Made by a program: the position numbers and the translations under genes. From an uncultured archaeon (GTDB lineage: Archaea > Asgardarchaeota > Thorarchaeia > Thorarchaeales > Thorarchaeaceae): a DNA stretch of 32,000 nt. Every line of letters begins with the position of its first letter. Position 1 is the stretch's first letter. The notes below the pieces were generated by a model. It was not told where the DNA came from, ran no database searches, and saw nothing but the letters and a program-made list of their open reading frames with translations. The stretch is from positions 30,001 through 62,000 of the forward strand of contig CAYHAA010000002.1 in the NCBI GenBank assembly GCA_964354495.1, given 5' to 3'. Positions 6,092-32,000 of this stretch are shown in pieces.

Positions 6092-6994
6092 CTAGAGACC
6101 CAGTCGATGGAGCTCCTCTTCGAATATCCTCTGTCTATCGACTAGTCTCATTCTTTGTCCTGCAAACGCGCCAAGGTCGATAGTACCTTTTCTTGCGGCT
6201 TCGTCAAGTCTGCCAATCTCATCTTTGATTTCCTTGAGGCGTTCCCTGACAACATCGACTCTGGATGCTGCGCCCATCTCTTGGTCCGCGGTAGGAGACT
6301 GGACCGAGATTATTTGGCCATCACGAATCCTATAGATTCTGTCGCACTGTCTTGCAATCGAGGGGTCATGTGTCACCATGATAATCGTCTTGCCGTATTC
6401 CTTGTTCACCTTGTGCAAGTACTGGATAATAACGCCACCAGTTTCCGTGTCGAGATCCCCGGTAGGCTCATCGCAAAGCAAGACCATTGGATCATTCGCA
6501 ATTGCAGCGGCGATGGCGACTCGTTGACGTTCGCCCCCGGAGAGCTCATCGGGTTTGTGATCCTTTCTATCCTCGAGACCAACAACCGAGAGCAGTTCCT
6601 CAACCCGCCTCTTTCTGGTGCTTCCGTCCTTTCTAGCGGCAAGCATCGGGAGCTCGATATTCTCATAGGCAGTGAGAGTACTAAGAAGGTTCAGTTCTTG
6701 GAAGATATGGCCAACGATTTCCCGGCGAAGGGCAACTAGCTGCGTAGGATTGGCATTCGTGACATCATACCCCGCCACGACAGTCCTTCCGGCAGTGGCT
6801 CTCGTTATGCCGCCTAGAATATTGAGCAAGGTAGTCTTTCCAGAGCCTGAGGCACCAACAATGGCCACCATCTCACCTTTATTGACCTGCATCGATAGGC
6901 CACGCAGTGCCTGCACCTCAACGTTTCCGAGGCGAAACACTTTCACCAAGTCATCAGTCTGTATGTATGCTGTATTATTCATCATCTTCTCCAC
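6092..6994 (-). CDS. ABC transporter ATP-binding protein, LolD/MacB family, with a ~57 aa helical C-terminal extension
   Basis: Walker A GASGSGKT, LSGGERQ signature, Walker B LLCDEPTG, H-loop VTHD; abuts the permease stop (true start may be ATG 6985 or 6982). Confidence 0.93.
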   Translation of the reverse strand: MEKMMNNTAYIQTDDLVKVFRLGNVEVQALRGLSMQVNKGEMVAIVGASGSGKTTLLNILGGITRATAGRTVVAGYDVTNANPTQLVALRREIVGHIFQELNLLSTLTAYENIELPMLAARKDGSTRKRRVEELLSVVGLEDRKDHKPDELSGGERQRVAIAAAIANDPMVLLCDEPTGDLDTETGGVIIQYLHKVNKEYGKTIIMVTHDPSIARQCDRIYRIRDGQIISVQSPTADQEMGAASRVDVVRERLKEIKDEIGRLDEAARKGTIDLGAFAGQRMRLVDRQRIFEEELHRLGL

Positions 6995-9781
6995 CTAAAC
7001 CCTTAGTAGATCAATCTTCGATTCCGGTCTCCTTGAGGACCACCAGACAGGAATAATAGCGGCAAGGAGCACCACAGAGAGAAGTAGGAGAATCGTATAG
7101 CCTGCTGCCCCTCCTAGTGCCATTCTGTACCGGATTAGACCTGTTGCACTCTCATTCAGCGAGGCGATTTGCCCAAGGTTCTCGATATATCCCACTGCTA
7201 TGCCAAGCAGAAGTGCAAAGAAGACAGTCACCATAACCTCAGCTAGGAGCGTCTTGAACAATTGCCATTTGCTGAAGCCGCGCACTGAGAGAAGAGCTAT
7301 CTCAGCATCTTTCTCCTGTAGAGTGAGAATCACAACCAATGCAGTACCAACCATTGCGAGAATGACAGCAAATGAAATCGCCAGCCACTGTATCTTCGTT
7401 GTACCGCTTCTGATGACGCTAGTTTGATAGTCTGTTAGCTCAGTCGTGACCGAGTAACTAGCATAGACCCCGCTGAGCTCATCAGCCAGCTGTTCCTGCA
7501 GTTGGGTACCGTTCGTGTTGTCCACAGTATCGATGAGCACATTGGCAGTGGATGTATAGATCAGCAGACTGGAGTTGAGAAAGCCCTCTGACACAAAGGA
7601 TGTGTAGTCACCACCAATGGAGAACTGAAACCCTCCCGCAATTTGCTCAATTGGTGAGAGATAGCCAACAAGCCCCGCAATTGTGAGCGCATGTGTTCCA
7701 GAGGAAAATGGGGCTGCAACATTGAGTATGTCACCAACTGAGAGATCAAGTCGCTGCGCTACATCCAGCGAGAGGATAATACTGTCGTCTGTAAGGTCGT
7801 CGAACATCTGTTCGACGTCGCCAATGAACCACCCTGGTTCCCAAAATGCAATATCTCTCCATTCATCCGGTCGAATTCCTCGTGCATCTATTGTATTCGT
7901 TCCAGCTCTGAGGCTCAGTGTGTATTCTGGAGTCACATTCTGAACTGGTTCGTACTCCAAAACAGCTCCGAGCATCTCAGTCATATTCGTACCGGCATTG
8001 AGCTCGAGCCTCACATCTGCACCGACATCGTATCTAGCGGTTCTCTCAGTATAATCGTATTGTGAGTACAGACTACCTGTAGCAAAGATGCCATACGAAA
8101 CAATCAGAGCAGCTATGAAGACAAGTGTTGCATTACGAGCAGGGTGGCGTTTGATATTGCTTGTAGCTAGCTTCCCGAAGGCACCAAAGAACCTACGACC
8201 TGCAGTCATGACTGCCTCCTGGAACCTCTGCGAGCCTCGAATGAATACCTTTGTTGCGCCGTAGAGAAACAGGAGCGGACCTATACTATTCAGCACACTA
8301 TCAACCGCAAGCCAAGCAAGGATGGCAATTGAAACGAAAAGATTCCCGAAGCTTATACTGCCAAGTAGTCCATTCATGTCAATCCCTAGAGTCCAGACAA
8401 GTAGCTTGTAGGTTCCCAAGATCAAGCAGATGGTAGGCAGCAGTTTCTTGTACTCTGAGGTTTCTTCAACAAAGATGTACTGCTTGAGAGCGTCCAGAAC
8501 TTCGAGTTTGGAAGCCCGCCCAGAAGGACGCCACACTGAGAGGAGACCAAGAAACATACCTAAAATGACAGAGAGGACTACTGACACTAGATTGTCAAGA
8601 ATCGCTTGGAACATGTTCAGATTCTCGACACCTAGGATGATGTAAGCAGACGCAGTGCCAAGAAAGATGGAGAATGCTCCTGCAATCGCTCCAATGAGAG
8701 CTCCTTCCACCAAGAACATCCGTCTAATAGTCCCTCTTTCGTAGCCCTTCGTGAGTAGGAGGCCTATCTCGCGTCTTCTGAAGTTATATCCCACATCGCT
8801 GACCATTGTACCTGTGAAGTAAGCCAGAAGAAAGATGGGTAGAGACAATGCAAGAAACTGTGCGCTCATTATGAGCTGTGTGATCTGATAGACGAGAAGA
8901 CGACCCTGAAGATTCGAGGATACCTTTGCACCAAAGGGATCAGAGAGCTCGCTGATCACATCGGCTCGTCCCCTGATTCTCTCGAGCGAATTTGTAATAT
9001 CATAGGGATTGAGGTACCTTGCTCTATCCATCTGGAGATGAACTGAGGTAGTAATTCCAAGGTGAGTGTGACCACTAATAAACTCAGCCTCTCGCAAGAT
9101 AGAGTCCATGACCAGGTCCCAATCAGCGAGAAGAAGATTGTAGGAAGTATCGAAGGTGAAGGCGCGCGCACCACCGCCCAGACCTTCGAGTATCGCCATG
9201 ATTCCAGCACCAAATGACGGGATTATTGCCTCTCTGTTTCTCTCAGGCAAGTCAATGTATCCGACGACCGTGAGGTTTCTGGCTATTGTCAGTGGAGGCA
9301 TGAACAATCTGGAAACACGAATCTGAACCTCCAGTACTTGCCCCAGAGAAAAAAGTGATTCATTCCTCGAGCCCCGTACAACATAAGTTTCGTTCGCACC
9401 CAGTGATGAACTTCCTTGAAGTACCTGTATACCTGAAGCAATGTCTGAAGACATCTCTATGGCTGCGACTGTCATATTCGTGCCAGTACTATCGTAATCA
9501 AAGTAGAACTTGGATGAACGGGTGCTGTTTACAATACCGTCCACGGCATCCAGCTCGTTCTCTAGTTCATTCAGGTCGGCAATCGTCCAATTGGAGTTTA
9601 CTGAATCCACGTCAAAGTCATACAGGATGCTCTCGATGGTTGCATTGAGGGCATCCCTCGATATGATATCAGCCGCAACATTGGTGGACGCAAAGAAAGT
9701 CGTAGCTAACAGAACGCCAATGGTGAGGGCAACAAAGAGGCGATAGCTGCGAACCACTCGCTTGAAGGCGTACTTGAACAT
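6995..9781 (-). CDS. FtsX/MacB-like ABC permease (duplicated architecture)
   Basis: Two FtsX-type modules (RRREIGLLLTKG; EKDAEIALLSVRG), multiple TM segments and two large extracytoplasmic loops; SD GGAGGT. Confidence 0.88.
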   Translation of the reverse strand: MFKYAFKRVVRSYRLFVALTIGVLLATTFFASTNVAADIISRDALNATIESILYDFDVDSVNSNWTIADLNELENELDAVDGIVNSTRSSKFYFDYDSTGTNMTVAAIEMSSDIASGIQVLQGSSSLGANETYVVRGSRNESLFSLGQVLEVQIRVSRLFMPPLTIARNLTVVGYIDLPERNREAIIPSFGAGIMAILEGLGGGARAFTFDTSYNLLLADWDLVMDSILREAEFISGHTHLGITTSVHLQMDRARYLNPYDITNSLERIRGRADVISELSDPFGAKVSSNLQGRLLVYQITQLIMSAQFLALSLPIFLLAYFTGTMVSDVGYNFRRREIGLLLTKGYERGTIRRMFLVEGALIGAIAGAFSIFLGTASAYIILGVENLNMFQAILDNLVSVVLSVILGMFLGLLSVWRPSGRASKLEVLDALKQYIFVEETSEYKKLLPTICLILGTYKLLVWTLGIDMNGLLGSISFGNLFVSIAILAWLAVDSVLNSIGPLLFLYGATKVFIRGSQRFQEAVMTAGRRFFGAFGKLATSNIKRHPARNATLVFIAALIVSYGIFATGSLYSQYDYTERTARYDVGADVRLELNAGTNMTEMLGAVLEYEPVQNVTPEYTLSLRAGTNTIDARGIRPDEWRDIAFWEPGWFIGDVEQMFDDLTDDSIILSLDVAQRLDLSVGDILNVAAPFSSGTHALTIAGLVGYLSPIEQIAGGFQFSIGGDYTSFVSEGFLNSSLLIYTSTANVLIDTVDNTNGTQLQEQLADELSGVYASYSVTTELTDYQTSVIRSGTTKIQWLAISFAVILAMVGTALVVILTLQEKDAEIALLSVRGFSKWQLFKTLLAEVMVTVFFALLLGIAVGYIENLGQIASLNESATGLIRYRMALGGAAGYTILLLLSVVLLAAIIPVWWSSRRPESKIDLLRV

Positions 9782-9882: not shown

Positions 9883-10458
9883 TCATTCAGAACCGGCTGA
9901 CTGGCGTTGTCGATACAGGTATGCGCCGATACAAGCAATCAGACCAATACAAAGACTTGATGCGACGACATATGGCATTGTGATATTAGGGTCAACCACG
10001 GTCGTCGTTTCCGTTTGTAGTTCGACGTATTCATGGCGACTCACGCGAGTATTGTTCGCGAGATCTGTGGCAGTAATGTAGATATCATATGTACCAGCTT
10101 CCAGCAAAGCATCGAGGTTCTCAACGTAGAGAGACCCGTTGTACGTCATTAGCTCTCGGATGGTTGTATTCGGCCCATTGACATAGACACTCACATTAGC
10201 TAGGTCGAGATCATCATCAGTGACATTCGCCCATACTGTGAATGGCTCACTCATGTTTGGTCTTCCCGCAATGCCCCAGTCGTAGATTGAAGGACTCACA
10301 TCTGCCACATGAGTAGCGTGTTGGTCTTGTGTCTGAGAAACAGTCAGTATTCCCTTTGTGCCAACGGAAAGGATGAGACTCGAGAATAGAACAGCCAGCA
10401 CAAGAAATGTGAGGACATGGGAGGTTCTTCTGTATTGAGCCATCATAATCCTGCTCAT
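9883..10458 (-). CDS. Small secreted, C-terminally membrane-anchored protein with one Ig-like domain
   Basis: N-terminal hydrophobic signal/TM, beta-rich NVTDDD...GTYDIYITATDLANN, C-terminal TM followed by RQRQ. Start uncertain (10542, 10458, 10446 or 10443). Confidence 0.75.
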   Translation of the reverse strand: MSRIMMAQYRRTSHVLTFLVLAVLFSSLILSVGTKGILTVSQTQDQHATHVADVSPSIYDWGIAGRPNMSEPFTVWANVTDDDLDLANVSVYVNGPNTTIRELMTYNGSLYVENLDALLEAGTYDIYITATDLANNTRVSRHEYVELQTETTTVVDPNITMPYVVASSLCIGLIACIGAYLYRQRQSAGSE

Positions 10459-10616
10459 CTTCAATACTCTCTTAATTAGCTCGCTTGTTGACGCATTCTG
10501 CGAGGGTCTGGTTGTTCCGATGGGTCTATGCTGGAAGACCAAAAGAACACCGCAGGAATAGTCCCTGATCTAGGGCGCTGTTGTACTAACAAGATAAAAC
10601 GATAGAACAAGAAGGT

Positions 10617-14123: not shown

Positions 14124-14627
14124 ATGCACTTCAGGACTATCTCAGTTATTGGTGGCTCTGACTCTGACCAGAAGGTGCTGATACTGGCGGAGCAAGTCGG
14201 CGAGGAAATTGCGAAGCGAAATGTCGCTTTAGTTTGCGGAGGCCTCGGAGGAGTCATGGAAGCTGCTTGCAGAGGTGCCAAGAGGAACAATGGTCTAACA
14301 ATTGGCATCCTTCCCACTGACACTAAGGAACATGCTAACGAGTTCGTCGATATTGTAATCCCTACAGGTATTGGTTACGCCAGGAATTTCCTTGTGGCAA
14401 AAGCAGGAGATGCAGTCATTGCGATGGATGGCTCAGCTGGAACCCTAAGTGAAATCGCTATCGCTTGGTTCTCAGACCGGCCGATTGTTTCAGTGACTAG
14501 CTCCGGAGGATGGGCTGCGAAACTTGCTGGGACACAAATAGACGGCCGGAGAACAGATAAGGTGTACTCAGCCAAGACACCCAAAGAGGCAGTTCAGCTG
14601 GTCTTCGACGCTCTCGATTGGCAATAG
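14124..14627 (+). CDS. TIGR00725 family / LOG-like Rossmann-fold protein
   Basis: VCGGLGGVMEAAC, TIGILP, TGIGYARN, GSAGTLSEIA. Confidence 0.88.
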   Translation: MHFRTISVIGGSDSDQKVLILAEQVGEEIAKRNVALVCGGLGGVMEAACRGAKRNNGLTIGILPTDTKEHANEFVDIVIPTGIGYARNFLVAKAGDAVIAMDGSAGTLSEIAIAWFSDRPIVSVTSSGGWAAKLAGTQIDGRRTDKVYSAKTPKEAVQLVFDALDWQ

Positions 14628-14638
14628 GTGTGTATGCA

Positions 14639-15481
14639 ATGGACAGGCTTGTTCAGTCTATTCTTGGCGGCAAGACAAATTTCGAAGCAGATGAGATATG
14701 GCATCTCACAGGATTGACTCAGGATCTTCTTAGAGAGAAGCCAAACGTTGTAGATATTCCCTCTCAGAACCTGATATTCATCGGAGACCTCCACGGGGAA
14801 CTCGCAAGTGCATTATCCGTACAACGTTACATTGCAAAATATGATGATCATCATTTCATCTTTCTAGGTGACTACGTGGATCGTGGACCGGCACAAATAG
14901 AGACCTTCAATCTGGTTATGGCATTGGCACTTGCTCATCCAGAAAGAGTCACTATGCTCAGGGGAAACCATGAGTCCGAAGAAATAGTATCTCACTATGG
15001 GTTTTACGACGCTGTGACAGGCTCGTATTCGCTTGATGTGTTCAAATCCTACACAAGAGTCTTTGAAGTCCTCCCTATTGCCGCCTATCAGAATAACGCC
15101 GTATTTGCTTGTCATGGTGGCGTGGCCGAAGGAGTGACGTCGGTCGAGGATATTCAGGCATGCAACAGAAGAGACCCCAATTTCCCCGATGATGTTGTAT
15201 TTCAGATGGTGTGGAATGATCCACAGGAGGGCGACTTCAGATTCAGGCCCAACATCAGAGGTGCCCGTGCAAGATACTACGGACGGAAAGCCTTTGATGT
15301 TTTCATGACGGACATCAATGCACATCTCATGTTTCGTGCCCATGAGGTCATATCAGACGGATATGTCACGTTCTTCCAGGGCAGACTTGTTAGCATCTTC
15401 AGTGCATCATACGGCGGACAAGTACAGCCAAAGATTGTGCGACTCGGTTATAGTTGTAGAATAGAAACGCTGGCTGTCTGA
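14639..15481 (+). CDS. PPP-family Ser/Thr protein phosphatase
   Basis: GDLHG, GDYVDRG, RGNHE, YGFYD, CHGG, WNDP, RAHE, SIFSA; start ATG 14639 after SD AGGTG. Confidence 0.92.
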   Translation: MDRLVQSILGGKTNFEADEIWHLTGLTQDLLREKPNVVDIPSQNLIFIGDLHGELASALSVQRYIAKYDDHHFIFLGDYVDRGPAQIETFNLVMALALAHPERVTMLRGNHESEEIVSHYGFYDAVTGSYSLDVFKSYTRVFEVLPIAAYQNNAVFACHGGVAEGVTSVEDIQACNRRDPNFPDDVVFQMVWNDPQEGDFRFRPNIRGARARYYGRKAFDVFMTDINAHLMFRAHEVISDGYVTFFQGRLVSIFSASYGGQVQPKIVRLGYSCRIETLAV

Positions 15482-21108: not shown

Positions 21109-24100
21109 CTAGTCTAGGCTAATACCCAGGCTGTCTAGCAGGGCATCGAGGTCAGCTTTTGAGAGCCCTTTAGCCTCCTCTATGATGATGTCGATCTCGT
21201 CGCTAGCCATGCCCTTCTTGAGGAGCTTCTTCCGTAGGTCATCTAGCTCGCCTGGCATGTCCTGCAAAGGAACTTCCTCTTTCTTGGCAACGACCTTCAC
21301 AGGCTTTGCCAGGACATCGGCACGCCGAGCCTTCTCCTGGTCTATGACTTCTTTGAGGAATCCAGGTCTCTCGCTAGCCCTCATTCGTGAGAGATCAGCT
21401 CGGAAAGCATCAATCTCTGCCTCACCTAGACCAGTGATTGATGCCAGTTCTTCTAGCAGTTCATTGACCTCTGGAACCGTAGTCACTATTGGCTCCGGAG
21501 CTACGTCCTCTCTGGGTTTCACAAGGTGCAGTGAAGCTATCTCTTCATTCACAATAGTCATTGCCATGTCTTGTCTAGTGGGGGACTTGGGTGCCTTTGG
21601 CACACGACCTTTCGCCAGCGCACGAATCATTCGGCTCATGATGCGTATCTGTTTTGGAATGCTCCATACCTTCACATAACCCACTAGGAGTAGTGCCACT
21701 ATGAGGACTCCAGATCCTCCAGCAAAGGTCACCAACTGCTGGAAGGCCTGCTCTGCAGAGATGTCCGACTTGATGACCAATCTGATTTGTTGAGCGTCAT
21801 AGCCCTCCTTCACAATATTGATGATGATTGCATGGGTTCCTCCCTGAGTCAAGAGGAAGTAGAACGTATATGTTCCATCTTCATCTAGGGTAGACTGATT
21901 GTAGTAGGTAAACAAATTCAGATCCAGCTCCAAGGAATAGCTTCCACCGGTGATTGGAATATTATGGTCTAAGTCCATGTATGTCGTAGTGAAGGAGAAA
22001 GATACTCCGGGCTGGATCTGAATGGTCAGGTTTCCATGCACGGCGGCTGTCATGATTCTACGTATGATCACATCCAAGTGGATGGGCGACATAGTGTATT
22101 TCGTCGTGGCGAAATAGATATCGAAACCGTAGGTTTCGTACTGCAAATCGCCAGGGAGATTCAGAGTATAGTTGCCATTCGGCATTAGCAGAAGCTCGTA
22201 TTCACCCAGATCCGCGGAATAAGCAATTCCAATCACATCAGATATGGTGCTGTTGTCTAACATATTCTTCACATGGTAGGGAATCACAATGGTATCATTG
22301 ATTGGCGATGAGTAGGTTGTTGGACCGTAGATAGCGGCGGGAGTGGCATAGACCTCAATCCTAGCTATGGCTGTTCTCGCTGTGTAGTTCTGAAGGTTGA
22401 ACCTTACAACCAAATCATAGATACCTGGAGTTGTCACAGTGATGACCAGATCAACTCTGTAGGTTCCATTATCGTAGTCAGTTACAGTTGGGGTGCCTCC
22501 TTCCCAGCTGGCAATGACATTAGCTCCTCCAATGCCCACGTAGTGCTGAAGGTCATCATAGTAGAACTTGAAGCTGAGCGGCGCTCCGAAGTATCCACTC
22601 TCCAATGTGCTGCCTTCATCAACGGTCGCAGAAGTTGGAATGGGGAGGATTGTCACGATAATCGATTTCGTAGCGGTCGAGTAACCGAACTTCGAAGCTG
22701 TCAATCGTAGATAGATCGACTGAGATGGCAATGAACTTACATCAATGACAGCACTATACGTATGGTTCGTTTCCTCAGTCAATACGCCGGTTAGGCTCCC
22801 AATTGTGTAGCTCACATCCGCTCCACCTACTAGTGCACTGTAGAAGGTGTCATTATAGACCGCGAGGATGCTTAACGTATCACCGAAGTAGACCGTCAAA
22901 ACGGTCACGCCACTGGCAAGCTTCAGTTCAGTGTAGATTGGAACAACATTGATGCCAATGATGGTTTCAAGGAACACATGGTTGACTGAAGTAGCTCTCA
23001 GGGTAAGCGGATATTGCCCTACTGCAAAACCATACACAAGCAGATTAGCAGAATAGACGCCACCACCCAGATGAGAGAGAGGATAGACCGTACCATTGAA
23101 CTCCATTGTTACAGTAGCTGTGGTAACAGACATGGCAGATACAGTATCATTGAGGTACAGCTGAACGTCTATCGACGTATCAATCACAACCTCATAGGTG
23201 GAGAAATCAGGGATGATTTGACCTGTTGCTTTTGATACTATGAGATTGAATGTTCTCTGCCTTGGTTGATAATACTGCTTTGTGACGGATATCTGTGGAC
23301 TATAGACACCGAAGTCAGTATCTGACGAATCGACCAGCAGCGTGTAGTAGCCATTACCAACCTCGCTGAAGCCATAGAGCATGCCGTCCCACAGAAGAGA
23401 TGCAGTCATACCGGTGACTGGCGTACTGTAGTAGGGTTCCAAGACCTGGAAAGTGATGTTGACTAGTTCACCCCATTCTGCGTAGTAGGTGCTTCTCTCC
23501 AGGAATATCTCGACTGTGGCTGCACCAGGCTGCACAAATATCTCTGCCAGAGCAGTCTGATAGAATGGTTTGTTGGCATAGGCATGGAAGTCATACCTCT
23601 GCGCAAGCAATCCAGTTGTGTTGAGAGTGATAGTGTAGACACCATTTCCGAGCTCTGCCACTGAATAGCTTCTGCCAAACAGCGTTGTCCAATCACTTGA
23701 GATGACTGCACCTGACAAGGGCAGGTCATGGTCAAAGTCAACAAGAGTAATGACGACCACGATCGGTGCTCCCACAGCTGTAGAACCAGCAGGAGGAGCA
23801 TCGGCAATCAGAGAAGTCTGGACCTCCCTTATGGTTGCTGGAACGGCGAGTGTAATCCTGGTTGAGTAGAAGGGTGCGCCTGACTTGCTGAGAGTGAAAT
23901 CAAAGAAGACAATTCCAGTGTATCCGAAGATGCTGCTATTGATGAGGATTCTGTAGTTACCGTCGCCCTGTCGGACCAACGTGTACTGAGGTGAAGACCA
24001 GTTACCGCTTGTTATCAGCAACTGAGCATCATCAATACCGGCCCCTGTCAGGTAATCGACATAACTGAGCTCGATAGTTATGTTATCAAAGTACGGAGTA

Positions 24101-27100
24101 TCTTCCACGAGTGGAAACAGAATCTGGGTTGATCGTTCTACTGTCGATGCAGTTGTTGAAGTGCTTCGAGGTGCGTAATAGGGGACGCCGGGCCCTAGGT
24201 CGATTGTCATTTGAATAGGATGCCCAGTGACGAGGGCATCAGGACTGATGATAGTGGAGTTAAAGACTATCTCATAGTATGTTGAGTATTCATTGAGAGT
24301 GTAACTGCCGGATGCGATCACTGTGTAGAGGGGTCCATGTGTGAGTGTGATATGACTCTTCGTTATTGCTATCTTGGTGCCCAACAAGTAATCCGTGAAT
24401 TTGAATCGGAGGACCACGTTTTCAAGGAAGGAAACACTCCCTGGAGTCTGAGTGATAAGAATCTGAGTTGTTCTCGTAGTGACCCTCGCCAATACATCTC
24501 TCGAACCAGGAAGGTAGAACGGTTCTCCTATGAATGTTACAGTGACAGTGAGGAGATAGTAACCAGGTGCACCAAGAGCAGTCGTGTCGACCTCGATGAG
24601 ATAACGACCGTCACCCACGTATTTGAACCAGTAGTTTGAGTTCAGCACTAGTGCATAACTGCCATTCCCGGATACAGCAATGGCAGCACCGGGAATACCT
24701 CTTCCTGTGCTATCATCAACATAGGTGACATATAGAGTAAGATTAGATGAATATGGTGCACGATCCGGACTATCATAGCCTAGTTGAGTGGACCTCTTTA
24801 GTACCGATATGTCGAATACTTCGACCGCGTTTGCATAATACGGGTATGTATGGACAACGGCAGCTGTGACAGAGTATATTCCATCTGCTGGAAAAGCTGT
24901 TGTATTCAACGTAACTATAAAACGTCCCTCTGGACTGTATACGACAGTGTATTTATCTGCTGGAATATTCAATGTCAATGTTCCGGTCATGCCAGTAGCC
25001 GAGCCAGCGATTATGTCAGTGTAAACGAAGACGATAGTTATGTTGTTGCCCCACTGCCCGAGGCTAAACGACAGGTGAGAGAGCTGCGTTGCCCTTGTGA
25101 CGACGTTGACAGAGAATGTCTTGCTCTGAATTGAAGCATAGAACGGTGCTCCGGTCCAAGTTAGATTCAGGTGAAGAACATGAGTTCCGACACTTCCTAT
25201 CGATGCAGTATCTATGTACAGTGTGAACTCCTTGGTCGCTGGGTTATATGAATAGGTGAACGTCACACCTGCATCGTTCAGGTCAATATCGAGTTGAATC
25301 GATTCTCCGATTTTCAATGAGGTGAGCGTATCGACAAAACTGAAGAGAAACTCAGCTTGTTCACCATAAGGAGTGGAGGCAACAGGTGTGTAGTCAACAT
25401 ATGTAGGTCTATCTAGTAGAATCAGTGAAACAACCATAGTACCATTCTCATATAGGGGACTCTGCCCTTTCCTCCACATGAAGGAGAGCTCAAATCGAAA
25501 TGTATCTGTACTTGAGAATAGTGAACTGTCAAGAATGAAGACATAGGTACCAGGAACCGATTCAGATTCAATCACCGTGAAATCGCTCTGAGTGACCGAG
25601 TTGCCCGCATCAAGTGCCGTAATTCGTAGAAACACGTTGTCCGTGCTGTTGCTTATTCTCTGCAGGCTTACGGTGTCCCAATAGATCACTGTGAAGTTGA
25701 AGGTGTTCAAGTAGTAGGTAGCAGTCGGTGCGAGTTCAAGATACAGATCAGTATCTGTCCCTGTTATTCTTGCGCTGGTGTCTATCGTCTGACTATAGAA
25801 CTTGTCAACAATCCCAGTCCACTCAATGAGAATATATAGATCCTTCCATCCAATACTTCCCCATTGGTCGCTTGGGATGCTGACATTGTAGTGCCCTAGA
25901 CCAAGAGAAGACTGGGCAACAGAGCATACTATACTTCCAATTTCCGGGGAAGTCATAGTGAGTCTCACTTCTCCTGTGAAGTTGCCGATGCCAACTCGGA
26001 GCTCTGTATCCTGATAGAAGACAAGTACTGTAATTGTACTTCCATAGGGTGTCTGTACGATGGGTGCGTCTAGTACAAAGAGGGTGTTTCTTTTCCGTAT
26101 CTCAACAGCGATGTCAAACGTGTGATTCAGATGGTCATCTTTCATCACATTAAATCTGACATCGATGAAGTCCGACCCAGTCAGAGGATCACTCGACTTG
26201 GTGAAGATTGTAATGTTGTACTTCCCGGGCAAAGTTTCGACAACTGTGTAGTTCGTATCGCCCGAAATATGGAAAGACGTCCAGTTGCAGGTGATTGAGG
26301 AGCTAGAGCCCGTGATTGGTGTCCCGTGGTCAGTATCGGTCCATGTCAATAGGAATGAGGACGCCTCACCAAGAGGTATTGATAGCTGATTAGAGGTGTA
26401 TGTGATGGACGTATAGATCTCTCTTGCTTCGACATACATCAGCATTGTCTGCGGCTCTACGAAGGATCCCGTTGCATAGACACGGACTGGGTATTCACCA
26501 ATCTCCATGCCTGATACATCAAGTTGGAATTCGAACTGACCCATTCCTAGTGAGACTACGGTGTAGGGGTTAGACCAATCGCACCATAGGTTTCCCTCTG
26601 AGATTCCGGTCCCATTGACATTGGCGAAGACCGCGGTAAATGACTGATCGTCACCGACAGGACCAGAAATGCCAGGATAGTCAGGCGATGCTAAGGTGGC
26701 CGCATAATTGACGTTTATCGTGAGGTCAGTACTGGACGAATCAAAGTATGGATGAGTCCATTCCAAGTCCATAACATATTGACCACTTCTTGAAAGACCC
26801 GATGTGTCTATTACTTTGGTATATTGACCATTTCCATTGTCATCAAATGTTCCAACACCTAATGACCAATCGAGAGTCATGGTGCCCCCAGGAACAAGAA
26901 CAGTGGGTGAGTAGCTGTCGGTATCTTCCACTTCCAGAATAATGAGCAATAGGTCTCCGAAGGTCACATTAGTGACCATTGTTCCAACTGCATCGTTCGG
27001 ATATATTAAGACTATATCAGAAGCATGAACCACCCCGAATGGTCTCTTAAATAATCCGACAGAGGTCCGTTCTCCATCTGCACCCAGATTGTTGGTTATT

Positions 27101-28863
27101 GCCTGAACCATCCAACTGCCGGCTGGAGCAGACGATCCATCAAGCACAAATGTCGTGGATGTTGCATATCCGGTTCCGTTAGCGACTGGCTTCACAGTCA
27201 ACCACTCAAGCCCGTCTGGTCTGTATATGGTGATGTTGACAATCGATCCAGAGAAATCAGCGCCTACGTAAGCGCGCACTCTTGTCGTATCGCCAGCTCT
27301 GAGGGTAGGAGTACGAGTCCAACTGCTCGTATCTTGATCCCATAGCTCCAAGTCAGATATCATGTTTGGGGAACTGCTCAGAACTCGCCAATATCCGTAT
27401 CTGCCAGGCTCACTAGTGATATCATAGGTTGACACGTTGAGAAAGCCATCATTTGGATTACCTCCAGTCCAGCCGGATGTAAGATTCGTTGTCGGCGCGA
27501 GCGGCTGCCCAACGAAATAGACGTCTCGTGCTGCAGGAATTGTCTCATTGAAGAAGTAGCGATTCGCATATCCCACGGGGATGTCTGCCCTGAAGTACGA
27601 TGTAAAGTCGGTATCCGTTCCGTTTCTTACGACAAACCTCTCACCGTATGCTAACGGACTTATCTCGTAAAGGCTTTGTATGTCATAGTGACGTGCGAAT
27701 AGGCCGACTGCGACATCAAAGTCGACTCGAATCTCTTTGTTTGGACTCGGCGTGGACGGAATCGGAGTCCATGAGAAGGTGAGGACGACAGGTGAAGTAG
27801 TCCAAGGTGTGGCAGGAATCTGCGTTATTGAGCATGTCCCGCGTGAGGCTCCATTGCTGATGCTGAGACCATTCATCTGTAGACTTAGTTCACTCGGATT
27901 AGCCAAGGTCTTCAAGTACAGCTCGATATTATCAAACCTTCCCCGAGGATGAATATTGGGTTCATAACCCACCGCTGCAAGCGATTCTAGACCGATTCGT
28001 GTGGTTGCTGTCGTATCGCCAGGTAGTCCAAAAACAGACGGGTTGACAGTGATCAACCCCGAGTTGTACCATGTTTCTTCAGCTCCGATATCGCCGAATA
28101 CTTTTCGCCAGACGTCAGTACCCTCAATATTCGCGATGAGTCGAAACGAGCCAGTCATTCCATAGTGAGTATCATCTACTGTGTCCGCCCAGTAGTCTAG
28201 GCGTAGGGCCGCCCAGACCACTGTCCCGCGAGTTACTGTCGTTGCCTGTTGATAGGCGGCAATATCGCCGTCATCATAGTAATAGGTAGAACCGCCACTT
28301 GTGGAGTCTATATCGACCAGTATGCAATCATCATTCAATCCGTGCCCATCATTGAGCCATGATGATGTTGGAACGCTCGAGCCAGCAACGTTTGTGTTTG
28401 ACACAACCCAGTCAGCAGCGCTGTCCTGAAACCCAGGATTCGTTATCCAGGTTCTGTTCTCAGTCAGGCTTGAAATTTGCACTCTGGCTTCATAGGCTTC
28501 CCAACCAGTACCCATGTAGACACTCGTCTGGACTGTGGTTGTGCCACTGCCTGGAGTGTACTTCATTTGCCGGCCGAGGAAGGTATTGGTGCTGTTTCCG
28601 AATTCTGAACCGACAATCGGGTCACTGAAACCGCTCCATTCCGTCCAGCCTTGGTCTGTCAGGACAAACTTGTGCAACTGCTCATAGGGCGCAAGTTCCA
28701 CGAACTCGCCATTTCCGATATCAACCTTGCGAGTATCGTCAGAGGCGCCAGCATTCAGCGTAGGAATTGTTCGTAGAACCGATGCCTGCGGAGCAAAGAT
28801 TATTGGAGCTACCATGAGAGCTATCAAGATTGCCAGTGGTAATAGGTGTCTGATGTCTTTCAC
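21109..28863 (-). CDS. Giant (2584 aa) single-pass surface protein: signal peptide, ~600 aa tip region, ~17 Ig-like repeats, TM, 184 aa cytoplasmic tail
   Basis: N-terminal hydrophobic signal; beta-rich ~100 aa repeats; about 40 N-x-S/T sequons by manual tally; TM near 21664-21740; charged helical tail. Confidence 0.9.
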   Translation of the reverse strand: MKDIRHLLPLAILIALMVAPIIFAPQASVLRTIPTLNAGASDDTRKVDIGNGEFVELAPYEQLHKFVLTDQGWTEWSGFSDPIVGSEFGNSTNTFLGRQMKYTPGSGTTTVQTSVYMGTGWEAYEARVQISSLTENRTWITNPGFQDSAADWVVSNTNVAGSSVPTSSWLNDGHGLNDDCILVDIDSTSGGSTYYYDDGDIAAYQQATTVTRGTVVWAALRLDYWADTVDDTHYGMTGSFRLIANIEGTDVWRKVFGDIGAEETWYNSGLITVNPSVFGLPGDTTATTRIGLESLAAVGYEPNIHPRGRFDNIELYLKTLANPSELSLQMNGLSISNGASRGTCSITQIPATPWTTSPVVLTFSWTPIPSTPSPNKEIRVDFDVAVGLFARHYDIQSLYEISPLAYGERFVVRNGTDTDFTSYFRADIPVGYANRYFFNETIPAARDVYFVGQPLAPTTNLTSGWTGGNPNDGFLNVSTYDITSEPGRYGYWRVLSSSPNMISDLELWDQDTSSWTRTPTLRAGDTTRVRAYVGADFSGSIVNITIYRPDGLEWLTVKPVANGTGYATSTTFVLDGSSAPAGSWMVQAITNNLGADGERTSVGLFKRPFGVVHASDIVLIYPNDAVGTMVTNVTFGDLLLIILEVEDTDSYSPTVLVPGGTMTLDWSLGVGTFDDNGNGQYTKVIDTSGLSRSGQYVMDLEWTHPYFDSSSTDLTINVNYAATLASPDYPGISGPVGDDQSFTAVFANVNGTGISEGNLWCDWSNPYTVVSLGMGQFEFQLDVSGMEIGEYPVRVYATGSFVEPQTMLMYVEAREIYTSITYTSNQLSIPLGEASSFLLTWTDTDHGTPITGSSSSITCNWTSFHISGDTNYTVVETLPGKYNITIFTKSSDPLTGSDFIDVRFNVMKDDHLNHTFDIAVEIRKRNTLFVLDAPIVQTPYGSTITVLVFYQDTELRVGIGNFTGEVRLTMTSPEIGSIVCSVAQSSLGLGHYNVSIPSDQWGSIGWKDLYILIEWTGIVDKFYSQTIDTSARITGTDTDLYLELAPTATYYLNTFNFTVIYWDTVSLQRISNSTDNVFLRITALDAGNSVTQSDFTVIESESVPGTYVFILDSSLFSSTDTFRFELSFMWRKGQSPLYENGTMVVSLILLDRPTYVDYTPVASTPYGEQAEFLFSFVDTLTSLKIGESIQLDIDLNDAGVTFTYSYNPATKEFTLYIDTASIGSVGTHVLHLNLTWTGAPFYASIQSKTFSVNVVTRATQLSHLSFSLGQWGNNITIVFVYTDIIAGSATGMTGTLTLNIPADKYTVVYSPEGRFIVTLNTTAFPADGIYSVTAAVVHTYPYYANAVEVFDISVLKRSTQLGYDSPDRAPYSSNLTLYVTYVDDSTGRGIPGAAIAVSGNGSYALVLNSNYWFKYVGDGRYLIEVDTTALGAPGYYLLTVTVTFIGEPFYLPGSRDVLARVTTRTTQILITQTPGSVSFLENVVLRFKFTDYLLGTKIAITKSHITLTHGPLYTVIASGSYTLNEYSTYYEIVFNSTIISPDALVTGHPIQMTIDLGPGVPYYAPRSTSTTASTVERSTQILFPLVEDTPYFDNITIELSYVDYLTGAGIDDAQLLITSGNWSSPQYTLVRQGDGNYRILINSSIFGYTGIVFFDFTLSKSGAPFYSTRITLAVPATIREVQTSLIADAPPAGSTAVGAPIVVVITLVDFDHDLPLSGAVISSDWTTLFGRSYSVAELGNGVYTITLNTTGLLAQRYDFHAYANKPFYQTALAEIFVQPGAATVEIFLERSTYYAEWGELVNITFQVLEPYYSTPVTGMTASLLWDGMLYGFSEVGNGYYTLLVDSSDTDFGVYSPQISVTKQYYQPRQRTFNLIVSKATGQIIPDFSTYEVVIDTSIDVQLYLNDTVSAMSVTTATVTMEFNGTVYPLSHLGGGVYSANLLVYGFAVGQYPLTLRATSVNHVFLETIIGINVVPIYTELKLASGVTVLTVYFGDTLSILAVYNDTFYSALVGGADVSYTIGSLTGVLTEETNHTYSAVIDVSSLPSQSIYLRLTASKFGYSTATKSIIVTILPIPTSATVDEGSTLESGYFGAPLSFKFYYDDLQHYVGIGGANVIASWEGGTPTVTDYDNGTYRVDLVITVTTPGIYDLVVRFNLQNYTARTAIARIEVYATPAAIYGPTTYSSPINDTIVIPYHVKNMLDNSTISDVIGIAYSADLGEYELLLMPNGNYTLNLPGDLQYETYGFDIYFATTKYTMSPIHLDVIIRRIMTAAVHGNLTIQIQPGVSFSFTTTYMDLDHNIPITGGSYSLELDLNLFTYYNQSTLDEDGTYTFYFLLTQGGTHAIIINIVKEGYDAQQIRLVIKSDISAEQAFQQLVTFAGGSGVLIVALLLVGYVKVWSIPKQIRIMSRMIRALAKGRVPKAPKSPTRQDMAMTIVNEEIASLHLVKPREDVAPEPIVTTVPEVNELLEELASITGLGEAEIDAFRADLSRMRASERPGFLKEVIDQEKARRADVLAKPVKVVAKKEEVPLQDMPGELDDLRKKLLKKGMASDEIDIIIEEAKGLSKADLDALLDSLGISLD
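21745..27024 (-). repeat. About 17 tandem degenerate ~100 aa Ig-like protein repeats
   Basis: Recurring pattern T-x-L...Y/W-G...Y-x-D...I-x-G-A...G-x-G-x-Y-x-I-x-I-D/N-T...F-Y; no clear nucleotide-level repeat. Confidence 0.75.
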
Positions 28864-31800
28864 TCTTCCGACCCTCCTATTTCACGAAGTAGTGCGTCTA
28901 TCTCAGCTCTAGATAGATTGCGAGCCTGCTCGATCATGAGGTCTGCCTCAGTTTCCGCAATTCCCATCTTCATCAATCGCTCCTTGAGGTGTCTGAGCTC
29001 CTCATTAGAGAGCTTCTCAACTTCGATGCTTGGGCGTTTCTCGGGCGTGACGCCCTCAGTCTCGGCAAGCTCCCTAGCTCGCCGAGCACGTTCCTGTTTC
29101 AAGACTTCATTGATGAAGCCGGCACGTTCACTCGGCCTCATCTGGTCGAGATCCCTCCGAAGGGTATCAACATCGCTTGCGGTCAGACCAACCACAATTG
29201 CGAGGTCTTCAAGCAGAGCTTCGACATCCATTGCGGCAACATCGACTGTCGAAACTGAAATGTCCTCAATGGTCTTAACTACGGCTACACCTGCAAGTTC
29301 CTCTTTCATCATGGCCAGCAGCATATTGCGTCGTACTGGAACATTCGCTGGTTTGGGAATGCGGCCTCTCCCAAGAACCGACACCATGCGTCGCAGAGTC
29401 CGAAGCAGCTTTGGAACTGATAGTACCTTGATGTACAAGGTTGCAAGAGCTGCCAGTGCCAACATACCAAGTGCAGAGAACCCGAAGGTCCTAGCAAGTG
29501 CTAGCTGCGCCGCGCTCAGTTCGGTATAGATATCCAGTTCTACTGACGAAGTCTGATAGTCCGCCTTGCTGAAATCGATGCGAAGGCTATAGAACGCCAA
29601 GTTGGGGGCGCGGAAAGCAAGTGTATAGGTCCCGTTGCCCCAGTTAATGTCCAGATTATATTCCCTGATAATTCCGTCATCAATAACATTAATGATAGCA
29701 TCAGTGATCATTGTGTCATGGTCCTTATCCCAAAATGTGACATTGATAAGGAAGACATCACCGACATAGATGTGTGAGGGTGGCTCAGTATAAGTCTTAT
29801 CTGTCAGGATTCGCCGGATGGTCAAATAATGCTCAATCTCCATTCTCGAGTAGTTTGCTCTTGAGAGAGATATTCTGATTCTGTAGGGGAGATCTCTGTA
29901 TTGAAGAGGTGTCGCCAGATTTGTTTCATTCGGCCCAAATACATACGAACCATTTCCGAGATTCGTTAGAGTAGCAGTCCCGAATTCCCACACAGCAGTG
30001 GCGACAGCGTCAGTAACCCATGCATCATTGAGGGTGTCTCTAAAATTGAAAAGCATTGAATAGTTGTCATATACTGGATACTCGGCTTCAAGAGGACCTT
30101 CTATTTGTGTGGGGATGGGCATCACAAGCAGTTTGGCAAGCCCGTAGGCGAACCTGTAGTTCTCTTTCCTGAAAGTCAAAGATATGTCGTGTGGTATCGC
30201 TCCAGCTGATGCAATAGACGTATTCAGAGTAAGACTGTACGTCCCATTTGCATAATCCACAAGCGATCCTCGTGTTTGCTCCAGAGTGTAGTTCGTGATT
30301 GCGCCCGCTATTCCTTCGTTTGCATGAGTGTCATTGAACAAGAAGTAGAATGTCACAATCTCACCGTAGTAGCCTGCAATCGTACCACTAGTGAGGATCA
30401 CAATCGCAGTTTCGATTTGTTCAACTGTCAATGTGAAGTCAAATTGAGACGGGGTGAATCCCGGTTTAACACTGGATATGGATACAGTCCATTCTTGCAC
30501 GCTGAGGAATGATGTGTCAACGAAGGCGCTGTAGTAGCCAGGAGTTGCCAACTCTACTAGACTGCCAACGATGGAGCCCACCCCAAAACTGAGAGTAGCG
30601 CCATCGACAGGCAGATTGAGATCAGTATTGTTCAGATACACGGTGATAATGACAATATCCCTGTAGTTGCCTGAGATTACTGTGTTGGAAATTGGGACGA
30701 GCTGCGTTTTTATCTCTGTAATCTCAATTGTCACCACAGTGCTAACGCTCTTGTAGTTAGGGGAGGAGGCTTGGATGAGAATATGGTGGTTGCCAACCGG
30801 AGCGCCATTCACTACAAAGGAACCAACATATTTGCCATCGATGGCTGACCAGTCAATGAAACCGCTGCCGCCAACCCAGGAGAATTGAACTAATCCGTCC
30901 ACTGAGATTGGAAGGCTGGTAGCATACTCAAGGTAATCAACATAGACCGTGACTGTCTCACCGTTGACAGCGGAGATTGGATCGATGGACGCAACAATCT
31001 TCGCAGCGATTTTTTCTATGCGGATCTGGAAGTCCCGCAGCGCTGTTTCGTAGTTGACCAGAGAGGACTGCACTCGAATCGTGTACTCACCTGAGGTCAA
31101 TGAAGAAGTGAGAACGGTACAATTGTACAGACCATCAGCCACGGGTGTCATATCGAAGGTCAGTAGACCAATCGTCAGATTGACATCTGCTCCAACAACT
31201 GGGAAGCCCGTCCTAGCATCTGTGATATTTGCTTGGAACTCCACACTATCGCCCCACATGGGACTCTGAGGAGTGAAGATCAGCTCAAGCAAAACAGGCA
31301 CTGCCGCGAGAAGAATGTCCGCCTCAATACTCTGACTCAGATGGAGGTATTTGCTTGCATTCACAATGAACCGATATTGCTGAGCATTGAGTCCAGAGGT
31401 GTTGATTGACATCTGGTATATGCCAGGTGCTATTTCCACAATAGTGGTGTCAGTCCCGTATCGTGTGAACCAATCAGTTGTTATGGTAGCACTTGGTACT
31501 CCTGTGCCAAATGCAATGGCTGTGTAGGTGATGTTGGCATAGACCATATCGCCGAGATAGTGTGTGACTCCCTCGGGCAAAACAAAGCTCAGAGTCGTGG
31601 ATACTGGATTCACGGATATGCCGAATTTCACACCAATAACGTCGCGATAAAATGGACTGCCAGACCATGTGAAATTGGCTTGGAAGAAGTACCTGCCAAG
31701 GCCAGCTAGACTATTCGAGTCCACAATGACCGCGTAAGTACCATCAGAATTGTCGATAATCCAATAGTCAAAGCTCGATGTGTTCGAGCAGCTCACGCTG

Positions 31801-32000
31801 ACACTGGCACCAAGAATTGGAGCACCGGTCAAATAGTCGCTGAAACGTAGGAGAGCAGTCACATTGAAGTAGTAGTAGCCGGGTGGCGTCTGCAGCACCG
31901 CCGCTTGGGTGAATCGTGCTACGATAGAAACCTCTGTCGAAGAGGACGCATTTCCATAGTATGGAGTGACGTCGCCCCATACAAATAGTATGGATATCAG
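28860..32000 (-). CDS. Second giant surface protein, paralog of 21109-28863 (5' end outside the window)
   Basis: The frame is open from 32000 (LISILFVWGDVTPYYGNASSSTEVSIVARFTQAAV-LQTPP...). Eight full repeats, TM and a 186 aa tail. Its TGA overlaps the downstream GTG start (GTGA). Confidence 0.9.
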   Translation of the reverse strand: MISILFVWGDVTPYYGNASSSTEVSIVARFTQAAVLQTPPGYYYFNVTALLRFSDYLTGAPILGASVSVSCSNTSSFDYWIIDNSDGTYAVIVDSNSLAGLGRYFFQANFTWSGSPFYRDVIGVKFGISVNPVSTTLSFVLPEGVTHYLGDMVYANITYTAIAFGTGVPSATITTDWFTRYGTDTTIVEIAPGIYQMSINTSGLNAQQYRFIVNASKYLHLSQSIEADILLAAVPVLLELIFTPQSPMWGDSVEFQANITDARTGFPVVGADVNLTIGLLTFDMTPVADGLYNCTVLTSSLTSGEYTIRVQSSLVNYETALRDFQIRIEKIAAKIVASIDPISAVNGETVTVYVDYLEYATSLPISVDGLVQFSWVGGSGFIDWSAIDGKYVGSFVVNGAPVGNHHILIQASSPNYKSVSTVVTIEITEIKTQLVPISNTVISGNYRDIVIITVYLNNTDLNLPVDGATLSFGVGSIVGSLVELATPGYYSAFVDTSFLSVQEWTVSISSVKPGFTPSQFDFTLTVEQIETAIVILTSGTIAGYYGEIVTFYFLFNDTHANEGIAGAITNYTLEQTRGSLVDYANGTYSLTLNTSIASAGAIPHDISLTFRKENYRFAYGLAKLLVMPIPTQIEGPLEAEYPVYDNYSMLFNFRDTLNDAWVTDAVATAVWEFGTATLTNLGNGSYVFGPNETNLATPLQYRDLPYRIRISLSRANYSRMEIEHYLTIRRILTDKTYTEPPSHIYVGDVFLINVTFWDKDHDTMITDAIINVIDDGIIREYNLDINWGNGTYTLAFRAPNLAFYSLRIDFSKADYQTSSVELDIYTELSAAQLALARTFGFSALGMLALAALATLYIKVLSVPKLLRTLRRMVSVLGRGRIPKPANVPVRRNMLLAMMKEELAGVAVVKTIEDISVSTVDVAAMDVEALLEDLAIVVGLTASDVDTLRRDLDQMRPSERAGFINEVLKQERARRARELAETEGVTPEKRPSIEVEKLSNEELRHLKERLMKMGIAETEADLMIEQARNLSRAEIDALLREIGGSEE

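Follow-up and report, generated by a model that had tools for sequence, protein, structure and literature searches.

It is well established that integrin beta subunits and classical cadherins are type-I membrane proteins with a large, repeat-built and glycosylated ectodomain, one membrane helix and a basic juxtamembrane segment, and that their tails are better conserved than their ectodomains. In bacterial fibrillar adhesins, the ectodomain is likewise giant and composed of numerous beta-sandwich-like repeats, and they are anchored by sortase motifs, type I secretion system (T1SS) retention modules or outer-membrane domains; a structured cytoplasmic tail is, as generally known, absent from them. 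For archaeal surface proteins, the usual description places the end of the chain at the anchor or shortly behind it. In this work, a stretch of 32,000 nucleotides from an uncultured archaeon of the Thorarchaeaceae (assembly GCA_964354495.1, contig CAYHAA010000002.1, positions 30,001 to 62,000 of the forward strand), in the following called the window, was analyzed. It contains the genes of two giant proteins, P0001 and P0002, whose C-terminal tails had been described in an earlier sequence-only reading and are the subject of this study.

The window giants resemble integrin beta and classical cadherins in topology, in the repeat-built and putatively glycosylated ectodomain, in the single membrane helix followed by a basic juxtamembrane segment and in the better conservation of the tail. 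They differ from them in that no sequence or fold relation was found and in that the archaeal tail has, in place of NPxY or catenin-binding peptides, predicted small three-helix bundles on a leash. This likeness is to be taken as an analogy only. With the bacterial fibrillar adhesins the giants share the repetitive ectodomain, and weak matches to the Pfam families CarboxypepD_reg, Filamin and Invasin_D3 were found in the window proteins; the structured cytoplasmic tail sets them apart. In both giants, no other part is as well conserved as the tail. As judged by profile searches, its two building blocks are domain families that have not been described before and are confined to Thorarchaeia and Hermodarchaeota, and each giant can be regarded as a putative type-I adhesin- or receptor-like surface protein with a predicted docking tail.

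Conservation of the tail in paralogues and orthologues

Positions 21109-32000 of the window are occupied by two minus-strand open reading frames (ORFs), and both studied tails are the C-terminal ends of the encoded proteins. By ORF call, P0001 (21109..28863, minus strand) comprises 2584 amino acids (aa), and P0002 (28860..>32000, minus strand) has an open frame of 2897 aa in the genome and lies in the window with its C-terminal 1046 aa only. At GTGA (28860..28863, minus strand), four nucleotides are shared by the P0002 stop codon and the GTG start codon of P0001, P0002 being the upstream giant of the two. A 4-nt stop/start overlap was also found in two other Thorarchaeota loci (L021 and L022), i.e., in all three loci read. 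The source genome has a size of 3.3 Mb in 51 contigs, with the window located at C2:30001-62000, and encodes exactly four tail-bearing giants as two tandem pairs. These are the window pair (C2:51112-58881 with C2:58863-67553) and a second pair on another contig (C1:411854-424168 with C1:424340-433852).

A comparison of the two window tails by BLASTP resulted in 76 identities over 189 positions (40%) with two gaps and an E-value of 5e-47, whereas the ectodomains of P0001 and P0002 are 26% identical. Without gaps, counted from the first residue after the membrane, 51 of 121 positions are identical. In windows of 60 columns along the paralogue alignment, a mean identity of 0.26 was obtained for the ectodomain (standard deviation 0.05, maximum 0.38) and of 0.385 for the tail, with a peak of 0.48 in the first of the two tail modules (module 1), and the top five windows all lie within the tail. 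The earlier claim of a shared tail that is conserved above the level of the ectodomain was thus confirmed, and the previously given counts of 27/50 identities in module 1 and 20/42 in the last module were reproduced exactly. The same trend was observed in orthologues of P0001, where the tail lies 9 to 21 percentage points above the ectodomain in 8 of 9 proteins compared (e.g., 82 vs. 68%, 75 vs. 63%, and 56 vs. 47%); the lone exception, P0087, carries an insertion in the linker. Because tail identity exceeds that of the ectodomain in the paralogues as well as in 8/9 orthologues, a tail conserved no better than the repeats can be dismissed. Across 22 diverse tails that are otherwise 34-77% identical (alignment A2), 25 positions are invariant. 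Conservation of this kind implies a putative constrained interaction inside the cell.

Membrane topology and anatomy of the tail

P0001 starts with a signal-like hydrophobic segment at its N-terminus. Its ectodomain is Ser/Thr-rich and contains 41 N-x-S/T sequons; in the tail, no sequons were found and 34% of the residues are charged. A single C-terminal transmembrane helix (residues approximately 2376-2395; 21679..21738, minus strand) is given by a hydrophobic stretch right before the tail, and the corresponding helix of P0002 was located at 29436..29495 (minus strand) by translation and alignment A1. In 169 of the 170 relatives having enough upstream sequence, a hydrophobic 18-mer directly precedes the tail. 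According to the positive-inside rule, positive charge is found on the cytoplasmic side of a membrane helix. We infer a cytoplasmic location of the P0001 tail because of this rule and of the net charge of +9 in the first 40 residues past the membrane helix. The giants would thereby be type-I surface glycoproteins of a Thorarchaeia-centred family.

The anatomy of the tail was deduced from alignment A2 together with an AlphaFold2 model; in the tail numbering, residue 1 is the first one after the membrane. The model of the whole tail is all helical, with a mean predicted local distance difference test value (pLDDT) of 78. The proposed layout of a basic helix, module 1, a variable linker and module 2 agrees with both the alignment and the model.

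The juxtamembrane segment of P0001 (tail residues 1-62, protein residues 2396-2457; 21493..21678, minus strand) was delimited by alignment, charge and a pLDDT of 84-92. It consists of a Y-V-K-V-W-S-I-P-K motif, a basic amphipathic helix, a K-G-R-V-P turn and a second helix, and has a mean net charge of +5. For the helix at residues 9-22 the hydrophobic moment is 1.65, compared with 0.88 in shuffled sequences (p about 0.05). P8, R12, P27 and R35 are invariant in the 22 tails. The segment is followed by module 1 (tail residues 63-125, protein residues 2458-2520; 21304..21492, minus strand), an acidic unit with a net charge of -5.6 and predicted helices at 69-82, 86-96, and 104-124. Most of the invariant positions of the tail are located here, namely L74, L75, L78, L84, D95, M99, S102, E103, F107, E110, V111, Q114, E115, R118 and A120. 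The 22 tails that keep the invariant juxtamembrane and module 1 residues include both window tails and the two other paralogues of the genome.

The variable linker (residues 2521-2536; 21256..21303, minus strand) ranges from 12 to 75 residues across the 22 tails, is rich in E (24%) and P (12%) besides A and K, and shows the lowest pLDDT of the tail model (57-61). Module 2 (residues 2537-2584; 21112..21255, minus strand) forms the end of the protein. It comprises approximately 48 residues and has a mean net charge of -5 over 49 copies. An AlphaFold2 model based on these copies (pLDDT 83) predicts a three-helix bundle with helices at 5-17, 22-33, and 37-47. In P0002, all on the minus strand, the juxtamembrane segment was assigned to 29250..29435 (24/62 ungapped identities with P0001), module 1 to 29061..29249 (27/50 in its core), the linker, which is not conserved between the two tails, to 29007..29060, and module 2 to 28863..29006 (20/42).

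The sequence-only reading had also suggested that the modules arose by internal duplication. Both are predicted three-helix bundles of similar size, and the string G-x4-E-I/V-D is present in both. This register is the best ungapped offset (z 2.6), and shuffled module 2 columns equal it in 21% of the trials. A comparison by hhalign resulted in a probability of 30% over 22 columns, with E-values of about 0.2 for reversed controls; in its register, unlike in the G-x4-E-I-D one, the second helix of module 1 faces the first helix of module 2. With p about 0.21 for the earlier register and a 30% match in another one, the suggestion was not borne out, and a duplication of the modules is rated as possible.

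Antisense ORFs face both tails on the plus strand, at 21182-21679 (165 aa) and 28846-29529 (227 aa). Their translations are Ser/Arg-rich and of low complexity. They are most likely not genes and arise as a side effect of the Glu/Lys/Leu-rich codons used in the tails.

Search for known families and folds

Pfam and NCBIfam scans yielded nothing significant for either window tail, and in particular no match to an enzyme or nucleic-acid-binding family. Together with searches of PDB sequences and of folds, in which no significant sequence-profile or fold relative of the tail appeared, this agrees with the previous description of an undescribed, intracellular and conserved two-part domain.

Weak matches were examined for all 49 copies of module 2, where RecX_HTH1, Bap31_Bap29_C, VIT1, DUF6074 and Pex14_N were the most frequent Pfam families. 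RecX repeats (PF21982, PF02631) are three-helix units of approximately 45 residues with an L-x-x-K-G-h-x3-E-I loop motif that can be repeated in tandem. Module 2 shares this size and the loop motif with them, as well as the three helices and the tandem repetition, the latter two being a generic trait that is no proof of membership. It differs in being acidic and located at the inner end of a giant membrane protein, while RecX is a soluble RecA regulator. At E <= 0.5, RecX_HTH1 was found in 13/49 copies (best E-value 2.4e-4), and module 2 of P0001 scores 15.2 bits, below the Pfam gathering cut-off of 26. With the RecX_HTH1 model nothing was detected in the source genome at E <= 0.01, whereas 9 of 14 control genomes had matches. 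The N-terminal domain of Pex14 (PF04695) is a small three-helix bundle, too, with a weak local match to the last helix of module 2. For P0001 this match covers 15 residues with 15.0 bits (E 0.02), below the cut-off of 23.2, and 4/49 copies match at E <= 0.5. The likeness to Pex14 and RecX noted earlier thus stays below the cut-offs of both families in module 2 of P0001. SAP (PF02037) was matched by the tail of one relative only (E 0.1), so module 2 is not assigned to the SAP/HeH group.

In the PDB-profile searches, Thf1 (E 0.007), RAP domain 3 (0.011), designed helical repeats and the N-terminus of uS15 (0.0046) were judged non-specific because the matches are short helix-loop-helix similarities. 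Foldseek found nothing in the PDB at E <= 0.001, neither with the whole tail nor with module 2. In the AlphaFold DB, its best matches to the juxtamembrane segment and module 1 were the DUF4129-annotated and unnamed clusters A0A524EH80, A0A497QA96 and A0A497PX50, with E-values of 0.019-0.26 and probabilities of 0.69-0.99 over 124-139 aligned residues. Their template modelling (TM) scores are 0.20-0.27 at a root-mean-square deviation (rmsd) of 13-15 A; the top match, A0A524EH80, has an E-value of 0.019, a probability of 0.99, a TM score of 0.27 and an rmsd of 13.5 A. This likeness may reflect just helices that follow a membrane anchor, and DUF4129 (PF13559) itself is absent from the hmmscan matches of both tails at E <= 1. 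VIA-align (wide) reached best Z-scores of 6.8 (module 1) and 6.0 (module 2), both within the helical-bundle background, and among the fold search results of module 2 no RecX or SAP entry is listed. A feature search of the ESM Atlas returned no usable match for the tail, and a shape search of the Atlas returned TM scores <= 0.31 only, to relaxase, histidine kinase and others. In literature searches, no paper describing these giants or their tail was found.

Distribution and separability of the tail parts

The genome was scanned for the three tail parts using hmmsearch --max over all six-frame ORFs. No part of the tail was detected outside the four giants, soluble proteins included. When 1.84 billion representative proteins were searched exhaustively with the HMMER profile, only 146 tail matches at E <= 0.001 were obtained. 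The named ones come from metagenome-assembled genomes (MAGs) of Thorarchaeota or other Asgard archaea, and named homologues are almost all from MAGs labelled 'Candidatus Thorarchaeota archaeon'. Nearly all matches are located C-terminally in large proteins. For position and length statistics, 172 full-length tails of the profile A2 family were collected. The tail forms the end of the protein in 167 of these and the remaining five continue with three more copies of module 2. The median length of the tail-bearing proteins is 2559 aa, and the short ones are probably fragments at contig ends. Four tail subtypes, represented by 103 (T1), 17 (T2), 23 (T3), and 29 (T4) sequences, correspond to the four paralogues of the genome.

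In a survey of 300 sampled genomes of the phylum, tail matches were present in 73 of 76 genomes of the family to which the window belongs, in the single genome of its sister family (f2) and in 18 of 19 genomes of the Hermodarchaeota family (f12). Elsewhere, matches were obtained in 2/4 (f3), 2/3 (f21) and 1/68 (f9) genomes, and in none of the remaining families of this sample. The spread fits a lineage-specific cellular function.

In Hermodarchaeota, the matching proteins are giants as well; they reach 4511 aa in length and number 5 to 8 per genome. Their match to the profile is limited to positions 1 to about 130, i.e., to the juxtamembrane segment and module 1, and one or two further module-1-like units follow this core; module 2 is missing. 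Four tandem copies of module 2 were found in P0102, P0105, P0126, P0130 and P0157, compared with one copy in the window proteins. The two parts of the tail are thus evolutionarily separable into a core of juxtamembrane segment and module 1 and a repeatable module 2 add-on in 1 to 4 copies. The term bipartite, which had been chosen for the tail earlier, is therefore apt in the evolutionary sense of a membrane-proximal core with a tethered add-on, as the core occurs without module 2 in Hermodarchaeota and module 2 is repeated independently.

Three loci of two Hermodarchaeota genomes (L006, L007 and L012; G096 and G052) were inspected individually. In the encoded giants, the juxtamembrane motif is combined with module-1-like repeats (two or three, pattern L-S-x2-E...E-E-R), and a Lys-rich C-terminus is located where module 2 would be.

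The search for other fusions proposed by the sequence-only reading was carried out, with P0207 as the only module 2 context other than giants. In this protein a truncated undecaprenyl-diphosphate synthase (UppS; Prenyltransf, E 8e-51) is followed by two copies of module 2. The fusion may be an assembly chimera because it lies on one short ENA scaffold of 1147 bp (L024) from a single sample. P0222, a Zn-ribbon repeat protein (E 4.8e-5), was tried as a relative of the tail and set aside as RecX-like and probably unrelated.

A 1558-aa type-I membrane protein with a three-part cytoplasmic tail is encoded in a 5-Mb genome of the Asgard family f9 (L023:705-5381, plus strand; G282:C334). Its tail consists of an alpha/beta region of longin/Roadblock-like appearance, a module-1-like motif (I-P-G-L-T-D-Q-E-R...M-S-P-A-E-R-E) that matches profile A2 with an E-value of 8.5e-6, and helices that look like MIT/TPR; no Pfam match was found in this tail. 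Units resembling module 1 may be a more widespread feature of Asgard protein tails.

Gene neighbourhood and candidate partner

Upstream of the window pair and on the same strand, the genes of a 1166-aa LamG-type membrane protein, the 373-aa leucine-rich repeat (LRR) protein P0233 and a 198-aa membrane protein are located in this order, and the gene order is the same in L021. P0233 has no signal peptide and is putatively cytoplasmic. Its C-terminal domain is present in 71 of the 76 genomes of the window's family and in 0 of the 19 Hermodarchaeota genomes. In about 18 genomes of several genera, the best orthologue of P0233 is encoded 2-6 kb upstream of a giant pair on the same strand, and in three genomes it lies 10-15 kb away on the other side of the pair. 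By gene order, P0233 is the sole candidate partner of the tail; this weak evidence is a lead rather than proof of binding.

The LamG-type protein (L018:4201-7701, minus strand; G000:C2:71200-74700), whose gene lies directly upstream of that of P0233, is exported (Laminin_G_3, E 5.5e-5) and has one membrane helix. It ends in a cytoplasmic tail of approximately 215 aa, which has by eye an alpha/beta look of the Roadblock/longin type and is unlike that of the giants. A 283-aa small GTPase with an N-terminal extension of approximately 120 aa is encoded upstream of the second giant pair, at a distance of about 12 kb (L019:1875-2726, minus strand; G000:C1:398874-399725; Arf E 2.6e-19, Roc, Ras). It was not counted as linked to the giants, with housekeeping genes in between.

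Further genes of the window were assigned by translation only. An ABC ATPase gene and the gene of a 928-aa FtsX/MacB-like permease occupy 6092-9781 (minus strand), followed by the gene of a membrane-anchored, sequon-rich protein of 219 aa (9883-10542, minus strand). A PPP-type Ser/Thr phosphatase-like protein with the motifs GDLHG, GDYVDRG and GNHE is encoded at 14618-15481 (plus strand), adjoining the gene of a LOG/Rossmann-like protein (14124-14627).

Function of the tail

With slightly better than even confidence, the tail is regarded as a protein-docking platform for one or more cytoplasmic partners of the giant surface proteins. We infer, as proposed before, a role in adaptor binding or oligomerisation, and the former is preferred because of the type-I topology, the constraint on the tail, its exclusivity to giants and a modularity that is typical of docking units, with a linker of 12 to 75 residues at low pLDDT and module 2 in 1 to 4 copies. 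Both modules are acidic, and no enzymatic signature is present in the tail. The basic juxtamembrane helix would lie on the inner face of the membrane, and module 1 would expose an invariant polar surface (D95, S102, E103, E110, Q114, E115, R118) for contact with a conserved cytoplasmic protein. Through the tethered copies of module 2, a second contact of the avidity type could be added, with reach and avidity tuned by the linker leash and the copy number. In this way, the giant adhesin-like ectodomain would be connected through the tail to a component of the cell interior.

Several observations weigh against docking. No cytoplasmic partner was identified. All fold matches are at background level, so docking is a prediction drawn from architecture and conservation. 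The predicted template modelling score (pTM) of the whole-tail model is 0.36, and the mutual arrangement of the parts is not fixed by it. Regarding P0233, a CoA-ligase gene on the opposite strand lies between the LRR gene and the giant pair, and housekeeping neighbours (tyrosyl-tRNA synthetase and a PALP enzyme) are equally syntenic with the pair, for which reason the proximity of the LRR gene may be inherited gene order. Near the second pair (C1:411854-433852), no LRR gene was found within about 15 kb, and LRR paralogues are numerous in the genome (34 matches).

An assembly function, in which the tails of coupled giants or of copies of one giant bind each other and thereby form pairs or clusters in the membrane, is considered unlikely. 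It is favoured by the tandem arrangement with the 4-nt stop/start overlap in 3/3 loci, by the fact that both pairs of the genome are tandem and many relatives have two tail matches about 7.7 kb apart, and by the maintenance of each tail subtype as an orthologous group of its own. A complex prediction with P0001-type (A4) and P0002-type (A5) alignments scored 0.00 with a partner pLDDT under 50 and weighs neither for nor against tail-tail contact. However, no positive sign of such contact was obtained. The strong acidity of both modules (-5 to -6) disfavours self-association without a basic counterpart, and the invariant positions are common to all four subtypes, which fits a common partner better than a subtype-specific pairing. 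A little less probable still is a role in biogenesis or sorting, where dedicated machinery for insertion, anchoring, glycosylation coupling or quality control would recognise the tail of these very long exported proteins, and once the protein is mature, the tail would not connect it functionally to the cytoplasm. The Y-x-K/R-V-x-S-x-P motif and the subsequent R12, P27 and R35, which are kept even in the distant Hermodarchaeota proteins, would suit such a role, as would the restriction of the tail to exported proteins of very large size. The archaeal C-terminal sorting signals known so far (PGF-CTERM/archaeosortase) are short, though, and a tail of 190 residues that contains two folded modules, one of them in up to four copies, exceeds the needs of a sorting tag; no candidate machinery was found adjoining the giant genes.

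It is highly improbable that module 2 is a RecX/HeH/SAP-like nucleic-acid-binding or regulatory unit that is freed from the membrane by proteolysis. RecX_HTH1 is indeed its most frequent weak Pfam match, the distant repeat protein P0222 reaches 28.4 bits and thus exceeds the cut-off of 26, and a tandemly repeatable three-helix bundle recalls RecX repeats. On the other hand, module 2 of P0001 remains below that cut-off, the model finds nothing in the genome at E <= 0.01, and SAP similarity is confined to one relative, with neither RecX nor SAP among the fold matches. A RecX-, SAP- or HeH-type role at nucleic acids is disfavoured because both modules are acidic, the average charge of module 2 being unsuited to such binding.

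Significance for the Asgard archaea

Beyond docking as such, the tail could form the cytoplasmic side of an Asgard adhesion-receptor system of the eukaryotic style, in other words a forerunner or analogue, in a prokaryote, of the outside-in coupling of integrins and cadherins. This extension is regarded as speculative and rather improbable. Ligand binding or mechanical load at the ectodomain would be passed across the membrane to module 1 and the module 2 copies, and the modules would recruit cytoplasmic adaptors, e.g., the syntenic LRR protein, small GTPases or cytoskeletal proteins.

With the tail, two domain families are defined that neither Pfam nor NCBIfam contains, and the small soluble units of the tail, module 1 with about 60 and module 2 with about 48 residues, are usable for partner screens. 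They belong to a family of giant surface glycoproteins with a folded, modular cytoplasmic tail; this family has four paralogues per genome and is present in nearly all sampled Thorarchaeia. If the link between surface and cytoplasm holds true, it would bear on the sensing of cell-cell contact, on adhesion and on symbiosis in the archaea closest to eukaryotes.

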